DNA of 64,000 nucleotides from positions 1 to 64,000 of the IMG/VR virus record IMGVR_UViG_3300031992_000051. One strand, given 5' to 3'. Positions 2,485-62,000 of this stretch are shown here, in pieces. Origin of the DNA: a virus. Its lineage: Duplodnaviria; Caudoviricetes. Under the pieces are notes generated by a model. The model was given only the letters and a program-made list of their open reading frames with translations. It did not search any database and was not told the DNA's origin. Numbering within the stretch: position 1 is the first letter of the stretch; each line of letters starts with the position of its first letter. Both the position numbers and the translations under genes were made by a program.

Positions 2485-2513
2485 CGGCGTTTTGCAAACA
2501 CAAGGAGACAACT

Positions 2514-2747
2514 ATGTCTGAAAAGAAAGCGCGTCACTTCCACGCGGGTAAACTTCGGAAGGAGATAGACGGCGTCGAGTACGTCGAGGTTGCCGAGAGC
2601 AAGGGCAAGGTGTTCGTGGCGGACACCGGCATGGTCCTTCGCAACGGAAAGTTGACGAAGGGGCACGACAATGGGCACGGCTATCGGATTCGCAAGGCTG
2701 GCGGCATGCGTTGGCGTTTCGCGAAGAAGGAGGACGCCAATGTTTGA
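2514..2747 (+). pseudogene. Internally deleted NUMOD4/HNH/NUMOD1-type homing endonuclease remnant (77 aa, frame intact)
   Basis: AAGGAG RBS. NUMOD4-like VEVAESKGKVFVADTGMV...DNGHGY is joined directly to a NUMOD1-like end RKAGGMRWRF, with no HNH core. Confidence 0.55.
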
Positions 2748-4830
2748 CGACTCAACATGCGTGTCCTGGGATTTTGAATCTTTCTATGCGTCCGATTATT
2801 CGCTCGCGAAGATGCCGACGTGGCAGTACTGCGCGGACGAGCGGTTCGACCCGTACCTTCTCGCGATCTGCGGACGGCAGATATTCGACGATGGGATCGT
2901 GGACGCGGAGAACGGCAAGACCGCGACGGTGTTTGACAAGAACGGCTCGATGTTCCGTCTGCTCGAGGACGGGCGGCAGCTGTTTGTCGGCCGCCCCGAG
3001 AACTTCAAGTTCTACGAGAACATGAAGGGACGCATCATCGCGATGCACAACGCAAGCTACGATGAAGTGGCGACGTTGGCCTGCATAAAGCGCGGTCTGA
3101 TACCGGCCGTCATAAAGGACGAGTGCAAGTTCGTTTGTACCGCCGACCTCTCCGCGTTCCTCATGGCCCCGCGCAATCTCAAGGGCGCGATGAAGGAGCT
3201 GTTCGGCAAGGAGATCTCGAAGGAGGTCCGCGCCGCGATGCTGAACCGCCACGACTACGACTTGACCCGTGAGGAGTACCACGCGCTCGTCGAATACGGT
3301 GGAAGCGATGCGGTCGAGTGTCTGGACATCTGGGGAACCTATGCTCACGAGTGGCCGTACCTCGAGCGCCGCGTCTCCGAGCTGAACCGCGAGTCGACGA
3401 TACGCGGCATCCGCCTCGACCTCGAGTACGTGAAGGCGTCGAAGAAGGAGCTGGAGCGATACCTCGCCGAGCTGACCGCCGACATCCCGTGGGCCCCGGA
3501 GAAGCCCGTGGGTTCGCTCGCGGCCCTTCGCCAGGCCGTGATCGCGCTTGGCATCGACCCGCCCGAGTCGTTCCGCAAGGACGACCCGCGCTTCCTGCGG
3601 TGGCTCGAGACGCACGACAACCTCCCGTTCATAAAGGCGAGGCAGAAGGCGGCGTCCGTCACCGTGAACCTCGCGCGCGTCAAGTCGATGCTCGACACGG
3701 TCGACCCCGACGGGCGCTCGCATCCGGCGTTCATGTACGGCGGCGCGCATACGCTTCGCTTCTCCGGCAGGGCCGAGAGCGGCGGGAACGTGAATCTGCT
3801 CAACTTGCCGCGCAAGCCCGTCATGCAGGGCGACGAGCACATCTTCGGCGGGAAGGGCGTCGACATCCGCGGCATGTACATCCCCGATCCCGGATGCAAG
3901 TTCGCGGTCTTCGACTACGCACAGATCGAGTCGAGGTTCGCCCTGTGGCTCGTGGACGACACGCACATGATGGAGGCCATGAAGACCGAGGGGAACCTGT
4001 ACGTTGCGAACGCCGTGCGCATGGGCTGGTGCAAGTCGGGCGACAAGATCAAGAAGACGAACCCCGACCTGTACCGCCTCGCGAAGTGCTGCGTGCTCGG
4101 CCTCGGCTACGGCATGGGGGCGGCGAAGTTCGTCGACTCGTGCAAGGCGCAGGGCCTCGACCTTCCGTCCATGCCGATCGAGAAGTGGCCGGAGATCGAC
4201 CGCCGCCTCACCTTCATCATCCGCAACGTCGCCCGCATCAAGGGAGACCCGTTCGCCGAGTGCAACAGGGCGCGCGTCGGACAGCTGCTCGAGTCGCTCC
4301 GCATCGTCACCGACTGGCGCAACGCGAACTCGAAGATCGTCGCGAAGTGGAGGGAGTACGAGGAGGTGTTCAAGCAGCGCATCGCCGCGGGCAAGGACAC
4401 GGTCGCCATCCGTCTCCCGGGCGGGCGCATCAAGCGGTACTTCCATCCGCACCTCTGCAAGGAGGAGACGATCGAGATCGACGAGAACGGCAAGGAACAT
4501 CCGTCCTTCCGCATCGCGATCAAGGCGACGGTCGTGCGCGGCAATCCCCCGGTGTTCCTGAACGGCGGAGCGATCATGGAGAACATCATCCAGAGCGCGT
4601 GCCGCGACATACTCATGAACGCCATCGTCGAGATCGCGGACACGCACCCGACGTGGAAGTACGTCTTCAACGTGTACGACGAGTGCATCTTCCAGATACC
4701 CGAGTCCGACATAGACGAGGCGCAGGTTGAGATACCCCGCATCATGACGCACGGCGACAGGATCAAGGACTGGACTGAGGGCCTTATGCTCGAGGTGGAA
4801 GGAGATATATGCGACCGCTACCACAAGTAG
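2740..4830 (+). CDS. DNA polymerase family A with 3'-5' exonuclease domain
   Basis: ExoI WDFES, ExoII HNASYD, ExoIII YGGSD; motif A DYAQIESR, motif B RLAKCCVLGLGYG, motif C VYDE; GGAGG RBS before ATG 2740. Confidence 0.95.
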   Translation: MFDDSTCVSWDFESFYASDYSLAKMPTWQYCADERFDPYLLAICGRQIFDDGIVDAENGKTATVFDKNGSMFRLLEDGRQLFVGRPENFKFYENMKGRIIAMHNASYDEVATLACIKRGLIPAVIKDECKFVCTADLSAFLMAPRNLKGAMKELFGKEISKEVRAAMLNRHDYDLTREEYHALVEYGGSDAVECLDIWGTYAHEWPYLERRVSELNRESTIRGIRLDLEYVKASKKELERYLAELTADIPWAPEKPVGSLAALRQAVIALGIDPPESFRKDDPRFLRWLETHDNLPFIKARQKAASVTVNLARVKSMLDTVDPDGRSHPAFMYGGAHTLRFSGRAESGGNVNLLNLPRKPVMQGDEHIFGGKGVDIRGMYIPDPGCKFAVFDYAQIESRFALWLVDDTHMMEAMKTEGNLYVANAVRMGWCKSGDKIKKTNPDLYRLAKCCVLGLGYGMGAAKFVDSCKAQGLDLPSMPIEKWPEIDRRLTFIIRNVARIKGDPFAECNRARVGQLLESLRIVTDWRNANSKIVAKWREYEEVFKQRIAAGKDTVAIRLPGGRIKRYFHPHLCKEETIEIDENGKEHPSFRIAIKATVVRGNPPVFLNGGAIMENIIQSACRDILMNAIVEIADTHPTWKYVFNVYDECIFQIPESDIDEAQVEIPRIMTHGDRIKDWTEGLMLEVEGDICDRYHK

Positions 4831-5242: not shown

Positions 5243-7584
5243 AGTTCTTCTGTCTCCCCAACCTCGCCACGGACCACGTGTCCGTGAGCGAGGAGCCGTG
5301 GAAGGAGTTCCCGGTCGACGCCGCCGTGCTCGCCCTGCCAAAGGACGAGTATAAGAAGCGCTGGCTATCGCCGGACACGAAGCACTGCCTCGTGTCCCTG
5401 TGCGAGGGCCAGAACCCGGCGTACACCGTCTCGCAGGGCAACCAGTGCGCGATGATACACGGGTTCCTCGCCGACTACGACGGCGTGTTCACCCCGGACG
5501 TGATCGACGCCGCGAGGAAGAAACCGCCGTCCCGGTTCCTCCCGAGGTGGTGGAGCGTCTCGCAGTCCGGGGGCCTGCACCTCGTCTGGACGTTCGACCG
5601 CCCGATCGCGGTCGCCGGGAACGCCCACGCCTCCGAGCTCCTGCACGTCATCGCCGCGAAGATAAAGGCCGTCCGGTGGGGAGTCGGGTACGACCCCGAC
5701 TCCGAGAAGCCGACGCAGGTCATGGACGTCGGCCGCGAGTGGCACGAGTTCAGCGCGACGGGCCGGATCCCCACCGAGGAGATCATCGTGTGGGACGCGG
5801 ACCTCTTCAAGACCAAGGCGAAGAAGATGGTGGACGAGGTGGTCGACATCCCGTTCGACGTCGTCGCCGCCGAGATACGAAAGCGCGAGTGGCCGCACCC
5901 GGTCCCCGACCGGATCGAGATCGGCACACGCTGCGTCCGCTTCTGGGACGCGAGCGCCGACAACCACAGCGGCGCGCAGTTCACGAAGGACGGCATCCGC
6001 GTCTACACGCCGCACGACGGAGGCTGGGTCAGCTGGAAGCGCCTCCTCGGCGCCGAGTTCTGCGAGCAGTACACGGCGAAGTCGATGGCCCCGTTCTTCG
6101 AGGACACCTGGTACTGCCACACGAAGGACGAGTTCTGGCGCTTCTTCAGGAACGACACGCCCGTCCACTTCGAGAAGCGGACCGAGAAGGTGCTCCGGCG
6201 CGACCTCATCGCCGAGGCGAAGCTCGCGTCGAAGCCGGGGAAGGGCGAGGACATGTCGGAGCTCGACCGGGCCCTCTACACGATAACGAGGCGGAACGTG
6301 GTGGACGTGGTCGCCCCGGTCATCTACCGTCCTGCCGGGAAGATACGGGTGAGCGGGGTCGGGTCCGTTCTCAACACGTCGCTCATCACGGTCGTCAAGC
6401 CCGCGCCCCGGCTCGCGTTCGTCACGCCCGAGGACATGGAGAAGGTCGAGTGCCCCGAGCGCTTCAAGAAGGACCCGTCGCTCTGCGAGTGGGACAACCC
6501 GTTCGCCGTCTCCGGGTTCCCGCACATCCACCACTACATGACCGCGATGTTCATGCGCGGGCAGGAGCGGTACGACCAGTGGGCGGCCGAGGGCTTCCCG
6601 CTCCACCGTCCGAGCGACGGCCAGCCGTTCGAGCACCTCAAGGACCCGCAGCTCGTCCACCTCGTCTCGTGGCTCTCGCACTTCTACTGGAACGCGGCCA
6701 AGATGTCCGAGGTCCCCTCCCCCGGCACGGTGCTCATCCTTGCCGGGCCGACCGGGATAGGCAAGTCGTTCTTCGCGACGGAACTGCTGGGCCGTCTCAT
6801 GGGCGGCTGGGACTACGCCGACAAGATGTACCTCGAAGGGTCGAGGTTCAACTCCGAGACGGTGAAGAAGCCGGTCCACGTCATCGACGACAAGTTGGGA
6901 AGCAAGACGCACCGCGACCGCCTGAAGTTCACCGAGGCGCTCAAGGTCGTCGCGGCGAACGGGCGCGTCCGGTGCGAGGCGAAATTCGGCTCGGCGGTCG
7001 AGGGCCTCCCCTGGCCCGGCCGCGTCGTCATCCTCTCGAACGTGGACTCGCAGTCCCTGTCGGTCCTTCCCGACCTTGACATGTCGACGCGCGACAAGTT
7101 CACCATGCTGCGGCTCGGCGGGGCGAAGTACTCCTTCGGCACCACGGACGAGAACCAGGCGTGGCTCTCCGAGGAGCTCCCGGCGTTCGCGCGGTTCCTG
7201 CTCGGGTGGAAGATACCCGCCGAGATAAGGGACGAGCGCTTCGGCGTCAAGGCCGTCCAGCACTCCGACATGGCGCAGGCGTCCGCCGAGAACGGGCTCA
7301 CGCAGATTCTCGTCGACGTGCTCGACGCGTGCATCGAGGAGACGACGGGGACGAAGGACGACGCGGACAGGTCGGACGCCGAGGGCTTCGTCGTCGAGGG
7401 CCCGGCCGTCAAGGTGTTCAAGTGGATCAAGTCCGTGGACGACGCGCTCGCCCGCGAGGTGATCGACTCCCGGACGCTGCACCAGAACCTGCTGACGCTC
7501 CACAAGAGCGGCGGCTACAACATCAGGTACGACGAGCGGCTGCACCGCTGGTCGATACCGTACGTGCTGAGGAGGCAGAAGTGA
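5239..7584 (+). CDS. Primase-helicase (AEP/prim-pol-like N-terminus plus P-loop NTPase)
   Basis: N-terminal ADYD and SQSGGLHLVW primase motifs; Walker A GPTGIGKS, Walker B VIDD, sensor ILSN. Confidence 0.85.
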   Translation: MKFFCLPNLATDHVSVSEEPWKEFPVDAAVLALPKDEYKKRWLSPDTKHCLVSLCEGQNPAYTVSQGNQCAMIHGFLADYDGVFTPDVIDAARKKPPSRFLPRWWSVSQSGGLHLVWTFDRPIAVAGNAHASELLHVIAAKIKAVRWGVGYDPDSEKPTQVMDVGREWHEFSATGRIPTEEIIVWDADLFKTKAKKMVDEVVDIPFDVVAAEIRKREWPHPVPDRIEIGTRCVRFWDASADNHSGAQFTKDGIRVYTPHDGGWVSWKRLLGAEFCEQYTAKSMAPFFEDTWYCHTKDEFWRFFRNDTPVHFEKRTEKVLRRDLIAEAKLASKPGKGEDMSELDRALYTITRRNVVDVVAPVIYRPAGKIRVSGVGSVLNTSLITVVKPAPRLAFVTPEDMEKVECPERFKKDPSLCEWDNPFAVSGFPHIHHYMTAMFMRGQERYDQWAAEGFPLHRPSDGQPFEHLKDPQLVHLVSWLSHFYWNAAKMSEVPSPGTVLILAGPTGIGKSFFATELLGRLMGGWDYADKMYLEGSRFNSETVKKPVHVIDDKLGSKTHRDRLKFTEALKVVAANGRVRCEAKFGSAVEGLPWPGRVVILSNVDSQSLSVLPDLDMSTRDKFTMLRLGGAKYSFGTTDENQAWLSEELPAFARFLLGWKIPAEIRDERFGVKAVQHSDMAQASAENGLTQILVDVLDACIEETTGTKDDADRSDAEGFVVEGPAVKVFKWIKSVDDALAREVIDSRTLHQNLLTLHKSGGYNIRYDERLHRWSIPYVLRRQK

Positions 7585-7987: not shown

Positions 7988-8133
7988 ACGAGGCGCAGGA
8001 GTGGGCGGCGTACGTCGCCCGGGTGAACGCGGTCGAGGCGGCGAAGGCCGCGTCGAAAAAATCTTCCGAAAATCCGACTTCGGCACTTGACGCCGAGGTC
8101 GGGGATATGATACAATACGGGGCAAAGGCATGA
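7984..8133 (+). CDS. Hypothetical protein overlapping a promoter
   Basis: GAGGAG RBS; ATGA overlaps at both ends. Confidence 0.45.
   Translation: MNEAQEWAAYVARVNAVEAAKAASKKSSENPTSALDAEVGDMIQYGAKA
8086..8119 (+). promoter_or_regulatory. Class I promoter, copy 3
   Basis: CTTGACGCCGAGGTCGGGGATATGATACAATACG, with upstream A-tracts. Confidence 0.85.
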
Positions 8134-17312: not shown

Positions 17313-20300
17313 TCAGTAGTCCTTTCTCCTGACGGGCGGCTCGTACGTGCCGGCCATGCCCTGCTTCGTGAGGTCGCTCCAGAGCTCCCGGAGCTTCGGG
17401 TCGAGCTTGTGCCCGCGCTTCTCCACGCGTTCCTGGAGCGACTGCACGATCTTGCTGTGCTTGCGCCCGAGCCTGCGTGCGGCGCGGCAGAGCTTGCCGA
17501 CCCGGTACGGGTCGAAGTCCCCGTCCACCTTGTCGGGCAGCGCCTCGAGGAGGTCGTTGTACAGGCTCCCGACAAGGCCCTGCACGGCGGAGTCGACGAG
17601 CCGCACCGCGTCGTTGTGCGAGTTGCCGTTGAGCCTCGCTGTGCGGTAGAGGCTGACGAGCACGGGGTCGCGGTCGAGCGCCGCGACGCGGAACTTGAAG
17701 TCGGTCCTCGGCGGCTTGACCGCGAACTTCAGCCCGCCGCGCTCGTCGAACGCCCACCGCTTCAGCTCCTTCTTCATCTTCTCCTTGACGGTGTAGTCGC
17801 TTTCGCCCATCTGCACCGGACCGAACGCGGAGAGGACGCCCACGTCGCCCCTGTCCACGAAGCCGGACAGCGTGAACGGCAGGAACGCCTTGACCATGTT
17901 GGCCGTCGCGGAGTCGGGCGAGAGGGAGAGCCAGCGCTCCGCGGCGCCCATGTCGTTCCAGGGCAGCTCGCGGTCCATCCACGAGAGGTTCCTCCCGAAC
18001 ACGCCCTCGAGGATCCGCTGCGTCGGCATGGAGAGCTTCGAGAAGAACTGCCCCGGCGCGTCCTGGAACCAGCGGAAGAACTCCCAGCCCTGCTTGCCGA
18101 AGTGCATGTAGTACCGGCGGCCGTTGTCGAACGAGCCGTGCGTCCTGTTGGCCCTGTCGTCGCCCGTGTACATCGGGATCATCGCGCCGAGCGCGGGGTG
18201 GTCCTTCTTCCACTGGGCGACGGTCGGGAACCGCTGCGACATGGCGCGGAGGAGCGGCGTCAGGTCGAACGCCGTCCAGCACGCCTTGTCCTCGTTCTGG
18301 AACGTCCACGGCTTGTCGTCGTCATCGTCGCGGCCCATGGCGCGGGACAGCCCGTAGATGGCGAGCTGGAACAGCATCGGGATGCCGATCATCACGCCGC
18401 CGAACATGCGCGCCCAGCGGCCCACGATGTACTTGCGCTCCTCCGCCGTCATCGTGTGCCCGCCGAGGAGCAGGTCCTCGACGGCCCCGCCGCCTCCGGC
18501 CTCCCACGCGCCGCGCGTCCACTCCCACGAGAACATGAGCATGTTCATGAGCCCGCGGTTCATCGGGTGCGCCCACGCGTACTTGAGCGGGTCGATGCCG
18601 CCGATCTCGGCGTTGATGTAGCCGCTGTAGCGCTTGAGGTCGCGGACGGGGTCGAACGCCTTGCCCTGCCGCTCCGCCTCCTGGCGGAGCTTCATGCAGA
18701 TCTGCGCGGTCGTCGCGAGCTTCGTCGCGTTGAGGGCGTAGGTGAACGCCTTCTCGCCGGACTTGGTGAGGAGCGTCCTCATCACGGAGTCCATCCGCGC
18801 CGCGGCCTTCGCGCCGAACTTCCCGCGCACCATCTCCGTCAGCTGGCGGAGGTCGCGCTGCACGATGGCGCGCTGCGGCTCGAGCGGGTTGACGCGCGAG
18901 TCGGAGAGCTGGATGCCGAGGGCGGACGCCCAGCCGACGAGCTCCGACAGGAACGGGTCGTTGGAGTCCATCATCTTCACGACGTCCCGGAACCCGAGGA
19001 AGTCGTTGGTGATCCAGCCGTTCCCGCTGAACATCTTCTGGAGGGCGCTCGCGGCCTTCGCGTGCTTGCGGAGGAAGTCCGGCGCGAGGTTCGACCCCAG
19101 GGCCGCCACGGCGCCCACGGCCCCGATGGGCGACTCCCACTTCGTCGCGAGCGGGAAGAACATGGAGAACGAGACGGACAGCGACTTCGAGTACGCGAGC
19201 GCGCGGTGGATGACCGCCCGCTGCGCCGTCGACCCGAAGTTGCGCGACGACTGGAGGAGGTGCCTCGCGTAGCCGAGCGCGTAGCCCCCGGCCAGCACGT
19301 TCAGCTTGGAGTCCCTCGGGTCGCTCTGCGCCATGAACCCGGTGATGGACTTCGCGTCGATGTCCTCGCCGGCGATCTCGCCGAACGCGACGCCGCCGAT
19401 CGTCTTCTTCGTGGAGAACTCGTCGTGCAGCGTCTTGTAGATCTCGTGCGCGTTGGCGATCCCGGACTTGCCCTCGTCGTACTCGAGGCCGTTGGACTGC
19501 GCCCACCAGCGCGCGACCTGGCCCCACACGGCGTCGGGGACGCCGCCCGCCTCGGCCGCGAGGAGGTTGGGGTCGGCGTAGCACGTCGGCCTGCCCTGCG
19601 CGTCCGGGGCCATCAGCATGTTGACGAGCGTCGAGCGGAACGCGAGCGCGTTCGTGATGCCCTCCATCGCCGCGTGGACGGCGTGGCCGAGCTGCGCGTT
19701 CGCCGGGAGGACGCCGGACGTGCGGAACACCATCTCGTCGGTGGCGCCGACGCCGCCGGCCAGCGCCAGGTCCTGCTCGGCCTTCTCCTCGTACATGTCG
19801 ATCATCCGCGCGACGCTCGACATGCCGCCGACGCGCTCGGCGACGGGGTCGCCGTTCCCGGCCCACGCCGCCTCGACGAGGCGGTCGTACACGGCCTTCG
19901 TGACGTCGGCGCAGTCCGCGTCCGCGCGGAGGGCGAGACCGGTCTCCCGCGCGCGGGCCGAGCCCGGCGCGTAGTCCCCGCGCCCGATCCACGTGCGTAT
20001 CTGGTCGGCGGTGGCGTTCTCCATCCCGAACACCTTGGCGACGAGCCGGGCCTGGTCGTCGCTCATCTCCGTCGCCGGCTTGATGTTCCGCGACCGCTCG
20101 TACGCGGCCATGACGTTCTTGAATACCGTCTCCTCCGCCGTCATCTTCTCGGCCGGGGACTTCTCCGTGCCGCGCGCCTTGCGGTTCGCGTTGTACATGA
20201 AGACGCCGGAGCCGCGCATGAACGGGAGCGGGGTGCGGAAGTTGTTGAAGAACGCGCCGTCGCCGTCGGTGAGCCACGGGTTCGTCCGCACGTACGCGGC

Positions 20301-23300
20301 GACCTCGCGGTACAGCCTCATGACCGGCTCGACGCGGCCCTGCCGCGTGAGCCACTCCTCGCGCCGCCCGGCGGCGAGGAGCTTCTCCCTCGCCGACGAC
20401 GAGCGGAACGCGTCCTCGATCTCGTCGATGTCGAGGACGAGCGCGCCGGACTCGTACATCTTCCGCTTCGTCACCGGGTTATACTTCTCGTGCCCGACCG
20501 CGACGCCGGCCTTCTCGAGCTCGTTGAGCACGTAGTCGGTCGTCGCCTCGGAGCTGTCCTTCGTCGAGTCCATGCGCTTCGCGCGCTGGAGCGCGGAGAC
20601 CGCCGCCCGCACGAAGCGCTCGCGGACCGGGTCCACCATCTCCGCCCACTGCGGGTTCAGCCCGGCCTCGTCGACGCCGCCGAGCTGGAGGTCGAGCCGC
20701 CACAGCGCGCGGTCGAAGTCGGAGAACTCGCGGCCGGAGTCGCGGCGGGCCTTCACGTTCTCGCGGGAGTAGTACTCCTCGTCCGCCACGTCGTCCACGG
20801 AGAACCTGACCTTGTCGACACCCGTCACGACCCTGCGCCCGCCCTGCGCGAACACCTTGTCCGCCTTCAGCACGAGGTCGCACAGCCGGGCCTCGTTCTC
20901 GGTGAGCGCGATCTTCCGGCCCGTCGCCGGGTCCTTCGCGTCCCTCTGCCCGTGGACGACGCCGGACGCGTCGTACCGCACGAAGCGGTAGTAGGTGCCC
21001 CCGTCCTTGCGGCGGACGACGCCTGCGTCCATGCTGAACTTGCCCTGCACCTCCTCGACGGCGGCGAGGTACTGCCCCGGCAGCACGTCGAGGCCCATCA
21101 CGGCGGCGTTCCAGTTCTCCTCGAGGACAAGGCGGCGCATGTAGCCGGCGTGCCTGTTGTTCATGCCGCGCATGAACTCGCCCACGTCGACGTGGCCGAA
21201 CGTCTTGCGGACGGTGGACTCGAGCCAGGCGTCCATGTTGTTCGCGACGAAGTACGGCTGGTCGTAGAAGTCCGCGGCCTCTGCCCCGTGCTCGAGGAGC
21301 TGCCGGGCCTCGACGCCGAGGAGCGCCGCCGTCTGGTCGGGCGTGTTCGGGGCCGGGACGTCCGCCGCGAGCTCCGCGTTCGCGTCGCCCGGCTCGAAGC
21401 CGAGCTGGCGGTAGAACTTCATGCCGGCGAGCACCGTGTAGATCGCGTCGATCGTGCGGTGCGCCGCGTACTGGAAGTCGTCGTTGCCGTTCCCCTCCGC
21501 GTCCACGTGGTTCCCGTAGAGCGCGCGGTTCGCGTCGAACGACGGGTTGAGGCTCGTGCCCGCGTTCGCGAGCCTGTACCTCTCGCGGTCGCCGTTCGGG
21601 AGGAGGTTGCCGCCGACGAGCCCGGCCTCGAGGTCGTGCAGCGTCGCGCCGAGCGTCTCCTCGCGGAACGCCGGGTCCTCGCAGAGACGCGTCGGGTCGA
21701 GCGACTCGAGCTGGCGGGACGCGGCGAGGAACTTGTCGAGCGCCGCCTCGAACGACGTCCCCGCGTAGCGCGCCTTGAGCGCCAGGAGGTCGCGGGACAC
21801 CGCCTCGCCGATGGCGGCGGGCGTCTGCCCGCAGGCCGCCATGATGGCCCCGGCGAGCGTGGAGGACGTGGCGCGGAAGGGCTCCTGGGTCTCCCTCGTC
21901 CCGCCCCGGCGCAGGTTGATCGGGCCCTGCGCCCGGTCGCCGGACGGGGCCATGTTCATCTCGACGATGGCGCGGAAGGCGAGGTTCTCGAGCTCCTGGC
22001 CGGAGATGGACGCGGGGTCGATGCCCTGCTGCGCGGCGACCTGCCGCACGGCGTCCACCGCGGCGGCGCGCTCCATCCCGCGGAGGACCCGCTCGCGGTT
22101 CCGCCCGACGGCGGCGAGCACGTCGCGCGCCTCCGCGTCGAGGCCGTCGCGCCTGAACCTGTTGCGGACCGCCATGCCGACGGCGCGGGCGAGCGTGAGC
22201 TGCGGGGAGTACTGCCCGGACATGCGGTCCGGGATCACCGTGTCCAGCTCCTCCTCGATGCGCTCCTCGGGCGACATGTCCTCGACGTCGTACATGGACT
22301 CCCCGCCCTGCTGGGTGGCCTGCGTCGCGGGTGCCCATTTTGTGAGGAAGTCCCTGTACGTGCTGCGGAAGCGGGTGCCCCAATGGTTGCCGAGCTCCGC
22401 GTCGAAGTGACGCGCAAGGGCGGCGCCGGACGCGGCGAGTTGACGCTTGACGGCGTCCTTCACGCGCGCCTCGTCGAGGCCGTTCGCACGGAGCACATCG
22501 GCGTACCGGCGTGCATCGACCGTCAGCGCCTCGATGTCGGTCAGGAAGTCCGCCATGCGGTACAGTATTCCGTACGACCTGTCGTCATCGAGTTCCGAAT
22601 CCATAAGCTCGTTCATCATGAGCCCCTCACGGGACAGGAGCATGATGACGTTCTTCTCGGCGTCCGTCCGGCTGTCGAACACTTCGCGCGGGATCTTGCC
22701 GAGGCTGTCCCCAGGCTGCCATCCCGTAGCGTCGAGCGCCGGCATGATGCTTTCGAGGTCCGCCATCGTTCCCTGGAGCGTCTCGCCGTTCAGACGGTCG
22801 AACGCGTAGTCTCCGGTGTTGGCGGCTTCACGCACCTGCCAGGCTCCGAGCATGTTCTTCGCCGCACGGAGGAATCTCGCCTCGAGCGCCTGCACCGGGG
22901 CCTTCTCCGCCGGCGGGAGGTCGAACAGCTCGCCCTGCACGTACCTGTCGCCGAACAGCGCGTTCAGGTCCTCGCCGCCCGTGATGCCGTCCTCCGCCGC
23001 GACGGCGGACACGTCGACCTCCCCGTCGTCCACGGCGAGCGCGCCCTCCATGGCGGCCAGGGCGTCCAGGTTCTCCTGGTCGGCCTCGGTCGCGCTCGTC
23101 ATGGCATGGCCGGTAAGGACCATCGCGGCGAGCGGGTTCTCCTTCATCTCGCGCCCGTACATCGAGCTGACGACACCGGTTTTCGTGATCGCCTCCCACA
23201 GCGCCTTGACGGCATTGAGGAGCTTTTGGAAGATGTTGAGCGTCTTCTCGTCCTTCGGGACCATCCCCTCTTCGACAAACCGCCGGAAGTCCTCCGCCGC

Positions 23301-26300
23301 CTTCTCCTCGCTGAACCGGCCCTTCCTGTCGTGGAACGCGACCGCCAGGTGCGCCATGTCCTCCTCGGAGAACGTGCCGAGCTCTTTCATCATGCCGAAC
23401 ACGGCGTGGAAGTATTCGTGGAACACGACGTTCGGGTACTTCGCCTGCTCCTCGAGCCTGATCTCGCGGCAAAGGACGCCGAGCTGCTTCGGCTCGACCG
23501 CCCAGTCGGAGGTCATCTGCTCTGACGTGACGCCGACCGAGCGCCACCTGTTCAGGTACGCCTCGCGCCCCGCCGCGTCCATGGCCTTCAGCTCGGCGAA
23601 CACGTCCTCCGCCGTCAGCGTCCTGCCTTCGGCGTCGCCTCGGCGGTTGGCGTTCGAGCGCAGCCAGTTCCACGTGTTCTTCGCGATCTTCTCCGGGTCG
23701 GCCACGCCTTCGTTGATGTTCGCAAGCAGCGTCGGGATGTCGAGCACGCGGTCGACGAGCGTGACGCGGATCATCGTCTCCACGCCGTCGCGGTTCTGCC
23801 GCTCCGCCGCCGTCCCGCGCAGGCGCGCCCGGACGAACAGCTCGCGCCCGCCCCTGTACTCGACCTTCGCCCCGGCCCACTGCCCGAGGATCCCGTTGAG
23901 CTTCGCGGCGAGCTCGGCCATGTAGGGGTCCCGCTCCGGGACGTCCGGCTTCGCGGCCGTGGGGAGCGCGACGGGCACGGCCTCCTCGGCCTCGTCCCAC
24001 CCCTCGATCTCCGCGATGCGCCTGTCCGCCGCGGACGGCTTCGGGACGCCGCGCGCCAGCGACTCGAGCACGGTCCTGTAGAGTCCGTTGTTCCCGAAGA
24101 TGTCGATGTTGTACCGGCCCTCCGGGTTGCCCGTCTGCCACGCGCCCTGGTGGAGCGCGGCGCGGACGTCGCGCCACGTCTGCGACTGCCCGGGCTTCCT
24201 CTCGAACGCTATCGACTTCGCGAGCTCCGCCGCGTTGCGCAGGTGCAGCCTCTTCGCGAGCGCGTCGATCGCGGCCTCGTACTCCGCCCTGTCGTTGATG
24301 CGCCTCGCGGGCTTGCCCGTCCCGTCCCGCATGAGCTCCCGCTCGAGCCCGCGCTTCAGGGGCGAGAAGTCGACGCCCGTCACGGCGGCCATGAGCAGGC
24401 CGTGGTCGCGGTCGAGCCGCTCCAGCTCCGCCGCCCAGCGGGCGTAGGTGTCGCCCATCGCCGTGACGATGGAGGACGACCGGGAGTCCGGCACGCGGTC
24501 CGTGCGCTGCGTGAGCGCGGCGTACACTGGGAGTATCTGCCCGAGGAACGCGGACGGCTCGATCGCGCAGCCCTTGCCGAGCACCGGCTCGAGCGCGTCG
24601 AGCACCGCCTCCGCCTCGTCGATGAGCGTGTTCATCGTCGTGCGGGCGCGGCCTTGCAGGAAGGTGTAGTCGCGCGACTTGCGGAACGCCTCGAGGTTCT
24701 CCCGCGACATCGTGAACGTGAAGGGGGACTTCTCGCGGAGCCAGTCCTTGAAGGGCTCCGGGGTCTCCCCGTCGGCCCTCTTCCGCTCCTCGTACTTCCT
24801 GTACCGCTCGACGTCGTAGATGCCCCTGCGGTTCTTCGCGAGCGCGCCGTCGGAGTCGAGCTCGCGGCCCGTCACGGCCCTGTCGTACATCCGGCGCACC
24901 TCGGAGATCTGGCCCTCGGTGACGCCCTGGAACGCGAGCGTGATGCGCCCGAGCCCGCGCTCCGCGCGCTCCTCCGCGTCCTCGTCCCCGTAGTACGTCT
25001 CCGCGTCGTAGCCCCTCGGCCCGGAGTCCGGGCGCTCGGAGAACATCGCGAAGAGCGGGAGCTCGCGCTGTGCCGTCGAGATGTCGACGAGCCGGTACAT
25101 GAGCTCGAACATGTCCTCGACCCCGCGCCGCATGTCGAGTGCGCCGTTGTGCAGGCGCTTCCCCCGGACGACGGAGCCCGAGCCCTGCGCGAACGCCCGC
25201 AGCACGTCATAGATGTTGTGCGCGCCGATCTTCGACTTGCCGACCTGCCGTACGGACCGCATGGCGGCGAACGAGAGGCCCGTCATCTGCGCGGACGCCT
25301 CGGCGGCCATCCTGTCGGACGGCTGGATGCGCTGCGCCGCGATGAGCTTCGTCGCGAGGACGGCGTCCTCCGTCGTCTCCGCGCCCCCGCAGATCGCCGC
25401 CACGTTGTCCTCGAACGCGTCCACGCAGTCGCGCCCGTAGTCCGCAACGGACTGCGTGCCGCACATGCGGTACGCGAGCATCGTGGAGTCGTGCATCTCG
25501 TTGAGCCTGCGGAGCTGCGCCTCGGAGATTCCGAGGTCGGACGCGGGGATGGGGTTCCCCTTGCGGTCGAGCATGATCCGCTCCCATCCGCTTATGCAGG
25601 ACTCCGCGTCGCTCGTCGCGGACGGCGCGCCGGGGTCGGTCGTCGTGTAGTTGACGGCCTTGCCGAAAGCCTTGGCGTCGGCGAGCGCGGACACGGCGTC
25701 GTGCCACTCGAGCATCCGGACGGCCTCCTCGGCGCCGCCCTTCTCGTGCATGTAGAGGAGGTAGCCCCCGAGGACGCCGAAGCGCCGCGCGCCGCCCGTG
25801 GCGACCGCGTAGGCCAGGCTCTTGAGCGCGGCCTTCCCGACGCCGCGGCCCCTCTTCTGCTCCAGCTCCTCCGCCGCCTCCTGGAGGAGCTGCACGGTCC
25901 TGGCCCCGCCCGCCGGCGTGCCGGTGAAGCCCCAGCCGCCCTTCTCGGAGTACTCGAGCCCGAAGAACCTCTGGACGTCGCGGTTCGAGAGCTCCTCGCC
26001 CTCGCGCCCGAACGCCCTGCGTATCTCCTCCTGCATCGCGTAGTCGGCCTTGTCCGTCGCCCGCCTCATGTAGGAGCGGCTCCCGCCGTGGTTCACGTCC
26101 TTCGCGTACCTGACGAACGCGTCGATGAACTCGGAGTCGGTCTGCGGCAGCCGGCCCTTGTCCCCGCCGTGGACGATCATGTCGGCGACGATGGTGTCCA
26201 TCATGCCGGCGGTCACGCCGAGGCGCGAGCACACCTGCTCCTTGATGTCGTCGAACGTCATGTTCGAGAGGCCGTCGAGGTGGTACATGAAGTCGAGCCA

Positions 26301-29300
26301 CTGCCTCGCGGCCTCCGTCCCCTTCGCGCCCCGGAACAGCCGCTTGTCGAACACGCCGGACGCCCACGCGATGTGCAGCGCCCGCGCAAGCGACACGGCG
26401 ATGCCGCGGGCCTCGGCGGCGTTCTGCGCGCCGTCGCCGACCTCCGCCGCCGTGAGCGGGCGGCCGATGGTCTTCCCGGTCTTCGGGTCGAGCAGCTTCG
26501 GGCCGATGACGTCGGCGGCCTTCGTGACGCGGACGTCCCACGCGACGGACGCGCCGCCCTCGACGCCGGCCTTCTCGAGCGCCTTGGCGGTCGCGGTGAG
26601 CGCGGCCTTCGTGCCGCGGGCGACGGCGCCCCTGTTCGTCCCGCCCTCGACGTACTCGCCCGTGTAGAACGGGGACGAGCCGTCCGTGTTGTCCATGACG
26701 GGCAGGGCGCGCGACATGTCGAAGAGGCACTGCACGAACGAGTTGTTCGCCTGCATGAGGGTCGTGTCCTTCGGCTTCTTCTCGAAGAGCGCGGCCTTCT
26801 TGGTGCCCTTGATGTGCTCCTTGCGGTTGTCGGCGAGCTCGTCGAAGGACTTCGAGAGGTCGAGGAACCTGTCCGCGTCGCGGAGCTCCTTGCCCTTCCC
26901 GCGCGCGTCCGAGCCGAGCGACGGGGCCTCGAGCATGTACAGCTTCGTCTTGTCGCCGTCGTGGTCGCAGCCGAGGATCTTGAGGGTGAACGGGTCGGGG
27001 GCGACCATCGCGTCGTACCCGGCCTTCCACTCCGCGCCCTCGCCGGACTCGGTGCAGGGGAGCGCGGCGCGCACGGTCTGGAGCCACATCGACCCGTTGT
27101 AGGACGGCGTGCGCGGGAGGCCCATCATCGTGCCGCCGAGGTAGATGTGCGTCTCGCCCTTCTCGTCGTGCATGTTCTCGTACACGGCGGAGCGGTCGAA
27201 CGTGCGCTTGCCCCCCGCGTCGCGGACGAGCCCGGTGAAGAGGTCGTCGTAGGACACCTCGGCGTACCAGTTCGCGGAGCCCTCCGACTTCGTGCCGTCG
27301 GCGGCGCGGAGCGAGAACGTGCGCTTCCTCGCGTCCATGTAGTTGCCGTGGTGGTCCTTGAACACGGACGCGATGCGGCGGCGCAGGCCGTCGACCTGCA
27401 TGGCGAGGTCGGACTCCTCGCCCTCGGCGCGCATCTCGGCCTCGAGGTCGCGGAGCCGCGTGAAGATCGCGTCGAGCGCGGCGATCGTCTTCTCCGTCGC
27501 GGTCGTCCCGTCGAGCCTCTCGTACGTCAGCGAGTCGCCGAACAGGTCCTTGACGAACTCGTCGGAGCCGCCGAACACGGACTCGAGCTTCTCCTCGTCG
27601 AGGTAGAGCCCGTAGCGGAACGAGGCGTCCGTGCAGTTCACGGAGCACAGGGCCATGCGGCGGTGGGCGCGCATGAACTGGCGGTCCCTCTTCGGGATCG
27701 TCCGCGAGCCCTGCAAGGTGTCCTTGAACATCTGGGAGTCCGAGTGCGTCTTCGCCTCGCCGTTTTCAACCCATGAAAGGTTGGAGACGAGCGGCGCGTC
27801 GATGCCCTTCATCGGCACGTTCCGGAGGCTGCGCAGGTACGCCGCGAGCTCCTTGTTCATGATGTCCTTCATGAACCGGCCCGTCTCCGGCTCGCCGCGC
27901 GCGGCGGCGTTCTGCGCGTCCTCGGACCTGCCGCGCAGGGCGCGGTAGGTGTCGGGATGGTTCGCGACCCACGCGGAGAACGCGCCCCAGCGCGACACGA
28001 GGTCCTGGAGTGACTCGGCGGTCTGGGCGAGGTGCGTGAATATGCGCGTGCCCGCGGCCCCGTCCGCGTTCCACCCCTCCTCGACGACGCGGGAGAGCGC
28101 GAGCGAGTCGACCATGTGGTTGCGCGGGGTGCGCCCGTAGCGCGTCGAGCCCTTCTCGCGGGTGGACGCCCGGTGCGAGACGTTCGCCACGGTGAAGCCC
28201 ATGAGGTCGTTGTCGCGGTACGAGAGGCTGTACGTCCGGCCCGCGAGGCCCTCCACCGCGTCGAGCCTGGCCCCGTCGAGTATCTCGGAGAGCTTCTTGC
28301 TGCCGGACCGCTCCGGCATCGCGAGGTCCGTCCACTCGAACCTGCCCTCGGGGTTCGCCTCGTCGGCGAAGAGCGCGTCCAGCTCGTCGCCCTCGTAGGA
28401 GTCCTGGAGCGTCGCGCCGGAGTCGAGCTTCTCCTTGAGCTTCCCGAAGAACCACTCCATGAGCGGGACGGTCTCCTTCTCGCCCTTCGCGTTCGTGACC
28501 GCGACGCCCATCATCTTGGAGTTGGCGACGGCGAGCTTGATCGAGTCGAAGTCCGCGAGGAGCGACGTCGAGTCGCGGAAGTCGGACGAGCGCTGCTTGC
28601 GGATGAAGTCCATGAGCTTGCGCTTCGGGTCCCACGCGCCGAACTCGCCCTTGTCGTTCTCCTGGCCCATGCCGACGTTGAGCGACTTGAGGAGCGAGAG
28701 GTGCGCCCCGTACGTCCCGGAGTTCGACACGTTCATCGCGTGGAACTTGAGCGTGGAGGAATTGGGGTCCTTCGCGCAGCGCTTGAGCTGCTCGATCCCG
28801 TAGCCGGTGCCGAGCGTGGTGCCGAGCATCGACTCGTTGTCGCCGTCCGCGCTCCAGACGATGTTCACGCGGCACTCGCCCGTCTGCGCCGTGCCGTCGT
28901 CGTTCGTCGCGACGGAGCCGTCGGGGTTGTGCTTGAGGCCGATGAAGCCGACGCCGGGCGCCTCGAGCGAGGTCGTCGCCGAGCGCTTCGCGTCCACGCC
29001 GAGGAGGTCGAGCCCGACCCACGACGCGACCTCCTCCGCCGCCTTCTCGTACGACTTGCCCGCGAACTGCGAGCGGAGCGGCACGGAGAGGAGGATCGAC
29101 GACGAGTGGTCGCCGGAGAACACCGGCACGTAGAACGTGTTGTCGTCCTTGAGGCGCACGTTCCCGTCGGAGTCGTACGAGACGCGCTGCGCGACGGCGA
29201 GCGCGCCGTACTTGCGGCGGGCGTCCTCGATCGCCTTGTCCTGCGCCGCGCCCTTCGGCATGGCCACGGCCTTCGCGAGCTCGTTGCCCATGTCGTAGGC

Positions 29301-59061: not shown

Positions 59062-62000
59062 TCACGGGGCCACGTACACCACGCCGCCCATCGTCGAGCA
59101 GATGGCGCACCCGGACGGGACGCCCCACGGGTAGTTCGGCATGTCCCGGATGTCCTTCGGGGACTTGTCGATGTAGAGGGCCTCCAGCTTCTCCTGCGCG
59201 TCCTCGAAGCCCTTGAAGGTGAAGCAGTCCTTGCCGATGGAGTACACCCACGGCGGCACGGCGACGGAGTTCGCCTTCACGGCGACGGGCAGGGCCTTCA
59301 CATTCGCGAAGGCATACATCACACGGCTGGGAGCATCGGCCGTGTCTCCGGCGAGCTGGGGTACGGTCGCCTGAAACCAGAACCGCTGCTGCGCCTCCTG
59401 GTCCATGCGCCTCTCCGCGGTCAGCCAACTCCAGATGCTGAACTCACATTCGGGCGCGTTCGCGGCGGAGGAGACGGGGACATCGAACATCTGGTACGTG
59501 GCGGTCCACGTCCCTGTATTGCGGTCGAACGCAAGCCGCAGCGCCTCGGCGCCGAGCACCATGTCGTACCAGACGTCAGACACGAACGCCGTCGTCGACG
59601 CTTGCAGCTGCTGGAACGCGTACTTCATGGCGTCGTACGGCGGGCACGACACGTAGCCCCGAGTGTAATGCAGACTCACGTACGACGAGTCCGCAGCCAA
59701 GTTCGTCACGGTGAACGTCATCGTGAGCGCGCCGACCTTCAGCGTCGCGACGTTGCCCTGCACGCCCAGAACCTCAACCGGGCCGGAGAGCCCGGACGTG
59801 CTCCCGAACGACGGGGCGTCGGCCCCGTAGGGGAAATCGTAGCCGGACGTGGAGATCGTCACGTCTCCATTCAGGCTCGCCGTGGCCGCATGGTCGGAGT
59901 CGAGCGCCAGCGACGGGACGAGGACGCCGTTCACCGTCGTGTACGTCACGTTGAGGAGGATGTAGTCGGTATCGTCCCAGTTCACGTACAGCTTGAGGGA
60001 TTCGGGGATGTAGTCATTGTCCCCGTCGATCTCCTGCACGTAGAACTTCGACGAGCCGCACAGGTCGTCTATCGCGTCCCTGTACGCGTCCACGGTGGGC
60101 GACGACCACCCGGCGAGCCCCGGAACAGGGACCGTGTACTGAAGCGAGTGCGTGAACGGTACGCCCGCGAAGCACCGGACCGGGAACTGCGTGACGCCGA
60201 ACGGGATCCAGTCGAGGGAACCCAGCCCGGTGCAGCCCTCGAAGCACGACGCGCCGACCGAATTGAGGAGCGGGACGGCGGAGTACTTCGTCGTCGCCTC
60301 GGCGACGGGGTAGCCAGGCCACACGCTGCCGAGGTCGGTCACGGCTACACCGGTGATCATCGCCGTGGCCCCGGTGACAGTATTGCCGCTCACCGCGCGG
60401 TCGACCTTCACGCTCACGAGCGTCTCGAACCTCCGGCCCTCCGTCTCGAGGACGAGTCTCACGTACCCGTCTGTGGATATGGACACAGGGGAGAAGCCTG
60501 TCTCATCCGGCCGGCTTCTCGCGGGAGCGACGGCCTCCGGGTCCCAGGACTCCGAAGGCGCGTACTCGTCGGGATCGTACGAACGCAACGCCACAAGCGT
60601 ACTGTCCGACGTCCCGTCGTACGAGTAGATATACCCACCTGTCCTGGACTGTTCACAGGACACGCTCGCCAGCGCCGCAGCATAGTCGGAAGCCGAAGAC
60701 GGAGTGACCGGCACCCCATGCGCGTCCAGCTTGGGAGGCCCAGACGTGCTTGGGTCGTCCTTGACCCGCACAATAAAATCGAGATCATCGGCAAGATGGA
60801 ACGCTATGGTGAAATCCATGCCGGACGAACGCGGGTAGGAGCTAGTATAGACATCATAGTCGGACAGCGCGTCCCGTACCCTCTGCACAGCCGTCGCAGA
60901 CGACGAAGCCTCCAGCTCTGCCGTAAACGCAGAGTCCGACAGACTCGTGTCTCCCTCAAAGCACGACGCCCCAAAGTGCGTGACGGCGCGAGCGGATGTG
61001 AAAGCGGCGAGAGGCGGATAGCTCGTCACCAGATCTTCCGCCGACCGTTCGCCTGACGCCCTCCACAGCTCCTTGCACAATATGGGTGCCGCGGAGTACA
61101 GCTCGGGCCACTTGTCCTCCACCGCGCACTTCACGTCGGCAAGCGCCACCGCGCCGGCGAACGCGTACGAGCCGAAGGAAGAGACTCCGCGCGGCACGCC
61201 GCCGGCCGTCGCCAGGCTCTCGCATCCGCGGAAAGCCTGTGACGAGACGAACGGAACCTTCGACGGAAACCCCGTCAGCGCCGTAAGCGGTGTGTTCATG
61301 AACGCTCCCGCCCCGACGGTGCGCACGTGGCTGAACGGAGAAAGCGATGCCACGGCGGTATTGGCGAAGCAGAACGGCGGGACGTCCTCGATAAGAAACG
61401 GGTAAGCGGTCGGGGCCAGGTACGAACACCCGTCAAAGCAGTGCGCGGACAGCATCGAGGCCGGCGTCACCATGTTCAGGTCGTGCAGCGCCGACAGCGC
61501 GGCGCCGCCGTCGGTCAGCTTCGACAGCACGTACGTCTCCAGCGAGGAGATGTCCATGTCGTCGCAGAAATACGGCGTTATGCTCCCGCCGTTCACCTTG
61601 GACACCAGCGCGGCGGCCACGTAGACCATGAACCGCATGAAGTTGATCGCCTGCCCCTCCTTCGTCGGCGAAGGCTGGTACTGCCGCCGGTCGAGGCTCG
61701 CGTTCACGACTATGTGCCCGTTGCGCTGCACCTCTGCCGAGACCGCCTTCATCTTCGCGTCCTCGATCCTTATGGTGTACACGATCTTGAGGGTGGTCGA
61801 GCCGCCATTGGCAGTCTTGGTCACCTCCTTGACCACATTGCCGTCCACGTTCAACGGGATGTCATAGAACACCACGTCGTCGTTCACGCCAGGACAGCAC
61901 ATCCAGAGATTGCACAGCGTAGACGTTTGGCCCGGCAGCTGAATACCGACGACCGTGTGCCTAGCACCGTTGCTGGCATAAGGATGCGACGCGTCAAGAA

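Follow-up and report, generated by a model that had tools for sequence, protein, structure and literature searches.

Single-chain RNA polymerases (RNAPs) built on two double-psi beta-barrels (DPBBs) and carried in the virion are known experimentally from only a few phage groups, the crAss-like and the P23-45-like phages, and are invisible to standard annotation. In phage phi14:2 the enzyme is gp66, a protein of 2,180 amino acids (aa) with a self-inhibited DFDID loop, and the virion RNAPs (vRNAPs) of crAss-like phages read DFD[IV]D at this site, with Ile or Val for Gly. Very long fusions already exist in described phages, since the giant single open reading frames (ORFs) of crAssphage LMMB (~4,070 aa; MT006214.1, 29550-41762) and Flavobacterium phage Fpv2 (a ~4,400-aa "structural protein"; KU599878.1, 34343-47548) contain a gp66-type polymerase. 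In P23-45, a two-barrel RNAP with the canonical DFDGD loop lies inside the 5,002-aa virion protein gp96, at the N-terminus of a tape measure and together with metallopeptidase and transmembrane (TM) parts (PMC10770324; 8H2M and 8F72 cover gp96/gp64). Here we analyse the first 64,000 nucleotides (the window) of the virus record IMGVR_UViG_3300031992_000051, from an uncultured ruminant-gut phage (Duplodnaviria; Caudoviricetes), where one uninterrupted minus-strand ORF (P0001, 17313-36599) encodes 6,428 aa; we consider it likely that aa ~2485-3550 of this giant protein form a single-chain two-barrel RNAP and that the whole chain is packaged and injected. The kind of RNAP is known; what is new is the family, together with its host-range context and its place in the middle of a 6.4-kaa chain.

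The ORF is clearly coding, since its third-position GC (guanine plus cytosine) content is 0.98. A sequence-only reading of the window had proposed a candidate two-barrel vRNAP from a handful of short words, and every one of them was found where it had placed them, in frame in this single ORF: GLPRTPS at aa 3160-3166, GCDHDGDK at aa 3210-3217 (26949-26972), and TLKFH, LLKS and DFDSIK at aa 2616, 2636 and 2683, with their Lys codons at 28746, 28686 and 28536. A lone D-x-D-G-D word is nevertheless weak evidence and not significant, because the composition of the ORF predicts ~0.2 such words by chance in a protein of this size and two further DxDxD words are present in it.

The region was modelled with AlphaFold2, template-free and from a 26-sequence alignment, giving a mean predicted local distance difference test (pLDDT) of 84.5 and a predicted template modelling score (pTM) of 0.87. 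Foldseek placed phi14:2 gp66 on top with the whole model and returned nothing useful with a sub-model. In the structural ranking gp66 is followed by QDE-1 (8.5), maize RDR2 (8.2) and P74-26 gp62 (7.8), then by 13 largest (beta'-type) subunits or fragments of cellular, plastid, poxvirus, African swine fever virus, phiKZ and AR9 RNAPs, and P23-45 gp96 closes the list at Z 5.4; all of the best 18 matches are two-barrel RNAPs. If the structures used to train the ptm weights of AlphaFold2 predate the release of gp66 in 2020, the best match is not a memorised template.

Two DPBBs can be recognised in the predicted structure, which bears out the two-barrel proposal made for the DHDGD loop. The minimal DPBB domains 7dvc, VAT-N and NSF-N, as well as the Rpb1/beta' barrels, align to model residues 441-742 (for the designed DPBB 7dvc, 82 residues of an 87-residue chain at a root-mean-square deviation of 2.5 Å), so the barrel that carries the Asp loop corresponds to aa ~2929-3224 with a helical insertion. 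R3163-T-P-S stands 49 aa ahead of this loop and is comparable to the beta' element N-R-x-P-T-L-H; the spacing "DP-8 residues-DHDGD" equals the "HP-8 residues-DFDGD" of beta'. In a separate model of aa 2574-2929 (pLDDT 82.7), residues 1-237 match a designed DPBB over 83 of 86 residues and other DPBB-fold domains besides, which puts the three lysines and the D-F-D-S-I-K loop inside a beta-like barrel; the lysine barrel that had been guessed ~550-600 aa upstream of the Asp loop is thus upheld at domain level. DPBB1 of Neurospora QDE-1 and plant RDR2, likewise single-chain two-barrel enzymes in which the Gly of DxDGD is kept (2J7N, 7Y7P, 7W84), aligns to aa 2574-2810. DPBB1 of QDE-1 has one catalytic Asp and several Lys (PMC9508822), and the D-F-D-S-I-K loop may by analogy provide a fourth acidic ligand and a lysine that binds product or nucleoside triphosphate (NTP).

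The order of the barrels is collinear with gp66, and a reversed arrangement was rejected on this ground. A 34-residue helix that begins 169 aa past the Asp loop (168 aa for the bridge helix of gp66) falls within the collinear range of the gp66 alignment, and the near-invariant block D-G-L-S-N-x-T-F-D-D-I-K-E-Q lies in the candidate trigger-loop region; the structural alignment extends to gp66 residues 1662-1676, as ranges and not as residue pairs. Judged from these models, the middle of the giant protein almost certainly adopts a genuine two-barrel polymerase fold. The positions of all parts are given in Table 1.

Table 1. Features of the giant gene, in window positions.
Feature	Position	Strand	Basis
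Giant ORF, 6,428 aa	17313..36599	-	End-to-end collinearity with a family of 4,200-7,500-aa proteins
Predicted two-barrel RNA polymerase core, aa 2485-3550	25950..29147	-	
Beta-like barrel DPBB-B, aa 2574-2810	28170..28880	-	Holds K2618, H2620 (99%), K2638, D2683, D2685, K2688
D-F-D-S-I-K loop in DPBB-B (D2683, D2685, K2688)	28536..28553	-	Invariant
Helical segment between the barrels, clamp- or connector-like, aa 2828-2926	27822..28118	-	Secondary structure of the models; function putative
Beta'-like barrel DPBB-A, aa 2929-3224, with helical insertion at ~aa 3002-3089	26928..27815	-	Structural alignments
GLPRTPS, counterpart of beta' N-R-x-P-T-L-H	27102..27122	-	R3163, P3165, S3166 invariant, T3164 99%
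Catalytic loop D-H-D-G-D (D3212, D3214, D3216)	26952..26966	-	Gly and all three Asp residues fully conserved
Candidate bridge helix, aa 3381-3414, 34 residues	26358..26459	-	R3398 and V3402 invariant, H3409 98%
Candidate trigger-loop region, aa 3428-3480	26160..26318	-	Offset near gp66 1598-1636; putative
HExxH zincin-like motif H-E-Y-F-H, aa 4394-4398	23406..23420	-	Majority family consensus "YHEYFH"
TM-like segment, aa 6066-6084	18348..18404	-	Sole strongly hydrophobic stretch; inside aa 5600-6300

A word-indexed search yielded 81 homologous proteins of 4,200-7,500 aa, and HMMER, run in full against 1.84 billion cluster representatives, yielded 55 of them; none of the homologues bears a name, most are encoded on contigs of roughly 90-100 kb, and no known RNAP was among the matches of either search. 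For the polymerase region, tblastn against 50,697 GenBank phage records (INPHARED) gave no match. Conservation of this region was measured in an alignment of 96 sequences with identities down to about 27%. R3163, P3165, S3166, R3177, D3212, D3214, G3215, D3216, K2618, K2638, D2683, D2685 and K2688 are present in every sequence, so that both the Asp triad and the R-x-P element, which the sequence-only reading had singled out, proved invariant among the metagenomic homologues. T3164 and H2620 are kept in 99%, and the positions kept in at least 95% further comprise K2538, R2539, A2805, N2806, H2809, N2827, D2831, R2995, D3119, F3134, D3135, R3398, H3409, D3450, D3451 and K3453. In all sequences the loop itself reads D-[HN]-D-G-D. 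Family members are collinear along the entire 6.4 kaa, and in conservation the polymerase blocks are surpassed only by the C-terminal 700 aa. This motif conservation is far beyond chance, and the two-barrel polymerase is very probably catalytically competent. What is established, at the level of prediction and conservation, is the fold, the order of its domains and the fact that the catalytic residues do not vary.

In the proposed mechanism, the chain would run from the beta-like barrel through the helical clamp or connector to the beta'-like barrel, the bridge helix and the trigger-loop region. The catalytic Mg2+ would be coordinated by D3212, D3214 and D3216. R3163-T-P-S together with K2618, K2638, D2683/D2685 and K2688 would, in the manner of gp66, QDE-1 and cellular RNAPs, bind the 3' end of the RNA and the NTP to be added; polymerase activity and the use of a DNA template are extrapolated from gp66. 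Carried inside the capsid, the giant protein would enter the host along with the ejected DNA, and its polymerase module would there transcribe the earliest phage genes without need of the host RNAP. The flanking modules, namely ~2,480 aa on the N-terminal side, the HExxH motif and the highly conserved C-terminal part with its one TM-like segment, would serve ejection, membrane passage, processing or counter-defence.

Packaging and injection are suggested by the genomic setting and by precedent. The record has 95,687 bp with a 118-bp terminal overlap, and IMG/VR classifies it as a virus with direct terminal repeats (CheckV completeness 100%). Genes for a family A DNA polymerase, a D5-like NTPase and a superfamily 2 (SF2) helicase lie in plus-strand arms, while a minus-strand arm (about 14-77.6 kb) holds genes for a protein with BspA-type leucine-rich repeats (LRRs), for fibre-like proteins and for a C1 peptidase. 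The giant gene lies near the distal end of the minus-strand arm, convergent with the replication arm; in the 100-kb genome of phi14:2, g065-g067 hold the same position, and the two genomes are alike in size and in convergent-arm layout. We infer virion delivery because of this late-arm position, the extreme size and the gp66 precedent, because LMMB and Fpv2 encode fused RNAP giants and gp96 joins RNAP, metallopeptidase and TM parts, and because an HExxH motif and one TM-like segment lie downstream of the polymerase and variable enzyme domains occur in the homologues; by these analogies, delivery of the polymerase in the virion is somewhat favoured.

Several results weigh against this interpretation. 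None of the sequence methods links the region to an RNAP: the complete giant ORF has no meaningful match in Pfam or PHROGs, a PDB sequence-profile search with the polymerase region found nothing at E<=10, and hhalign, run with gp66 alone, a 7-sequence crAss RNAP profile and a 96-sequence profile of the present family, was not significant (probability <1%). The Foldseek result (best E 0.079) is by itself without significance, and for the lysines the comparison with Rpb2 K979/K987 or QDE-1 D709/K743/K767 is one of alignment ranges and not of residue pairs. The virion context is drawn from the IMG/VR classification, the fibre-like genes and the layout, and PHROG and Pfam searches of the late genes recognised no terminase, portal or capsid. 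In addition, sigma-70-like words ahead of the replication genes may mean that part of the genome uses the host RNAP. The word in question, CTTGAC-R-CCG-N4-CGG, combines a -35-like hexamer with a small palindrome behind it and occurs three times on the plus strand of the replication arm (1975-1991, 2451-2467 and 8086-8102); at least three matches also arose in 7 of 100 shuffles, so its support is only moderate. Speculatively, these words fit a division of labour like that of phi14:2, with the injected RNAP serving the earliest genes and the host RNAP those that follow.

The family is best compared with the crAss enzymes. Identity to gp66 is about 11%, with no similarity at profile level. In a local profile alignment of the two families the Asp loops are in register (P 0.007), the Asp loop being the only part that aligns, and a sub-alignment of the lysine barrel with the crAss profile is not significant (P 0.16). 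Seven crAss-family RNAPs show R-I-P-T, G-S-D-F-D-I-D-K and three invariant upstream lysines, similar in order and spacing to those of the present family; unlike them, the present loop has the canonical Gly, the spacer between the barrels is larger than in gp66, and the polymerase lies mid-chain, whereas that of gp96 is N-terminal. The giants of LMMB and Fpv2 are relatives of gp66 detectable by tblastn, but the present family is not. Because of the hhalign probability and the Gly at the fourth loop position, this is a separate RNAP family and not a detectable sequence relative of gp66, with the crAss enzyme as its nearest structural neighbour. The view that the phage is not crAss-like is true of the sequence, but the nearest structure is a crAss-like vRNAP and the genome resembles that of phi14:2 in size and layout. 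The His that the sequence-only reading had noted in place of the usual Phe is confirmed in the loop but is no novelty: DHDGD is listed 14 times in a supplementary table, among others for RNAPs of a phiKZ-like jumbo phage, Erwinia phage RisingSun (PMC10770324). Literature matches for the word DHDGD are mostly to the 3xFLAG tag.

Three other explanations were considered. The region could be an active two-barrel RNAP that is not packaged, a counterpart of P23-45 gp64 or of the non-virion RNAP of phiKZ that is made after infection to serve middle or late genes; however, a soluble intracellular enzyme would be unusual in the form of a 6,428-aa fusion encoded in the late arm, both the nearest relative by structure and the fused giants known so far belong to the virion, and the sigma-70-like promoters of the replication arm suggest that later gene classes use the host RNAP, as in phi14:2. 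We regard this as unlikely. A two-barrel polymerase of another specificity, for RNA-dependent RNA synthesis (as QDE-1 and RDR2), priming or DNA synthesis (as PolD), is suggested by QDE-1 and ZmRDR2 being the second and third best structural matches and by the ability of QDE-1 to accept both DNA and RNA templates (PMC9508822), and appears to us very unlikely.

That the protein is a structural or ejection protein with a relic of the polymerase fold, or with motifs present by chance, agrees with the chance expectation for DxDGD given above and with the failure of sequence-profile searches to find an RNAP. On the other hand, the catalytic-type residues are all invariant in homologues at 27-40% identity, the Asp triad is lost in 0 of 96 aligned homologues, the polymerase blocks rank among the best conserved parts of the protein, and real polymerases are matched both by two independent barrels and by the geometry of the bridge helix. 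On the invariance of the catalytic residues we reject an inactive relic as well as chance motifs, and give this explanation very little credence. A packaged and injected single-chain RNAP remains our preferred interpretation.

On this interpretation, a concrete function can be predicted for a sixth of what is among the longest phage proteins recorded, in a family that Pfam, PHROGs, the PDB (by sequence) and GenBank phages lack, and, if the protein is injected, its other ~5,300 residues become candidates for an ejection apparatus and for cargo that counters defence. High-GC phages without recognisable crAss hallmark genes now join the structural neighbourhood of the crAss vRNAP, and a canonical DxDGD version becomes available for comparison with the self-inhibited loop of gp66. 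A bolder and rather doubtful possibility is that these ~95-kb phages of the ruminant gut (65-71% GC) form a deep lineage sister to the crAss-like phages, and that in them the whole crAss "transcription block" (the polymerase and its giant companions) was fused into one injected protein of ~6,400 aa; if that were true, an ancestral Gly-containing DxDGD would have been kept here, linking crAss vRNAPs with the eukaryotic RNA-interference polymerases QDE-1 and RDR.

More than two thirds of sampled 31-mers from the polymerase region were found in sheep, bovine, goat and rumen metagenomes from over a dozen studies, and the gene is spanned by long DNA contigs from a cow and a goat run that are about 98% identical to it. 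Most of its length is also represented in contigs of two RNA libraries; carry-over of DNA is possible, so expression is not claimed. In a bovine-gut contig, positions 22330-23085 of the window (aa ~4500-4760, the least conserved linker) are replaced by a longer unrelated sequence. Relatives of 91 kb and 77 kb lie in metagenome-assembled genomes labelled Anaeromicropila and Lentisphaeraceae, where they are probably phage contigs swept into the bins and not reliable host evidence.

The best conserved part of the whole giant protein is its C-terminal 700 aa (aa ~5600-6300, window 17700-19800), with a mean identity of 0.44-0.63. The HExxH motif sits ~850 aa past the polymerase core and has no Pfam match; it may be a zincin, either self-processing or acting on cell wall or membrane. 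Some homologues (P0011, P0014, P0017, P0044, P0068, P0077, P0081) carry extra Pfam domains not seen in the present copy, namely PF08902, an AAA_30/UvrD_C_2 helicase set, PF08719, PF18760 and PF00929 (RNase_T), which suggests swappable enzyme cargo. Such variable domains (exonuclease, helicase, PF08719, PF18760) recall the "polyvalent" injected proteins. The crAss-like RNAP protein cr126_1 likewise carries a DUF1768 annotation, DUF1768 and PF08719 being the same Pfam family.

Elsewhere in the genome (67% GC; relatives 65-71%), sequence searches with the large terminase subunit (TerL), portal and major capsid protein of phi14:2 found nothing at E<=10, and the Pfam TerL models PF03237 and PF03354 found nothing either. 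Among about 25 other ORFs, PHROG and Pfam scans recognised only the family A DNA polymerase, helicases, the D5-like NTPase, the C1 peptidase and the BspA-type LRR protein; there was no classical endolysin among the ORFs scanned. With no hallmark gene detected in a CheckV-complete record, the structural module is, by these profile searches, unusually divergent, and by sequence the genome shows no detectable similarity to crAss capsid, portal and terminase proteins. ESM Atlas searches with two late proteins gave vague phage fibre-like neighbours and a lead to Verrucomicrobiota, and neither was relied on. In the late arm, a 234-aa peptidase of the papain family (C1; genome 70824-71528, minus strand) matches Pfam at E 2.6e-4 and the PHROG "peptidase" at E 7e-10. 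A 1,615-aa protein (59062-63909, minus strand) with BspA-type LRRs (PF13306, E 1.5e-47) and weak matches to two PHROGs of unassigned function is probably a receptor-binding fibre.
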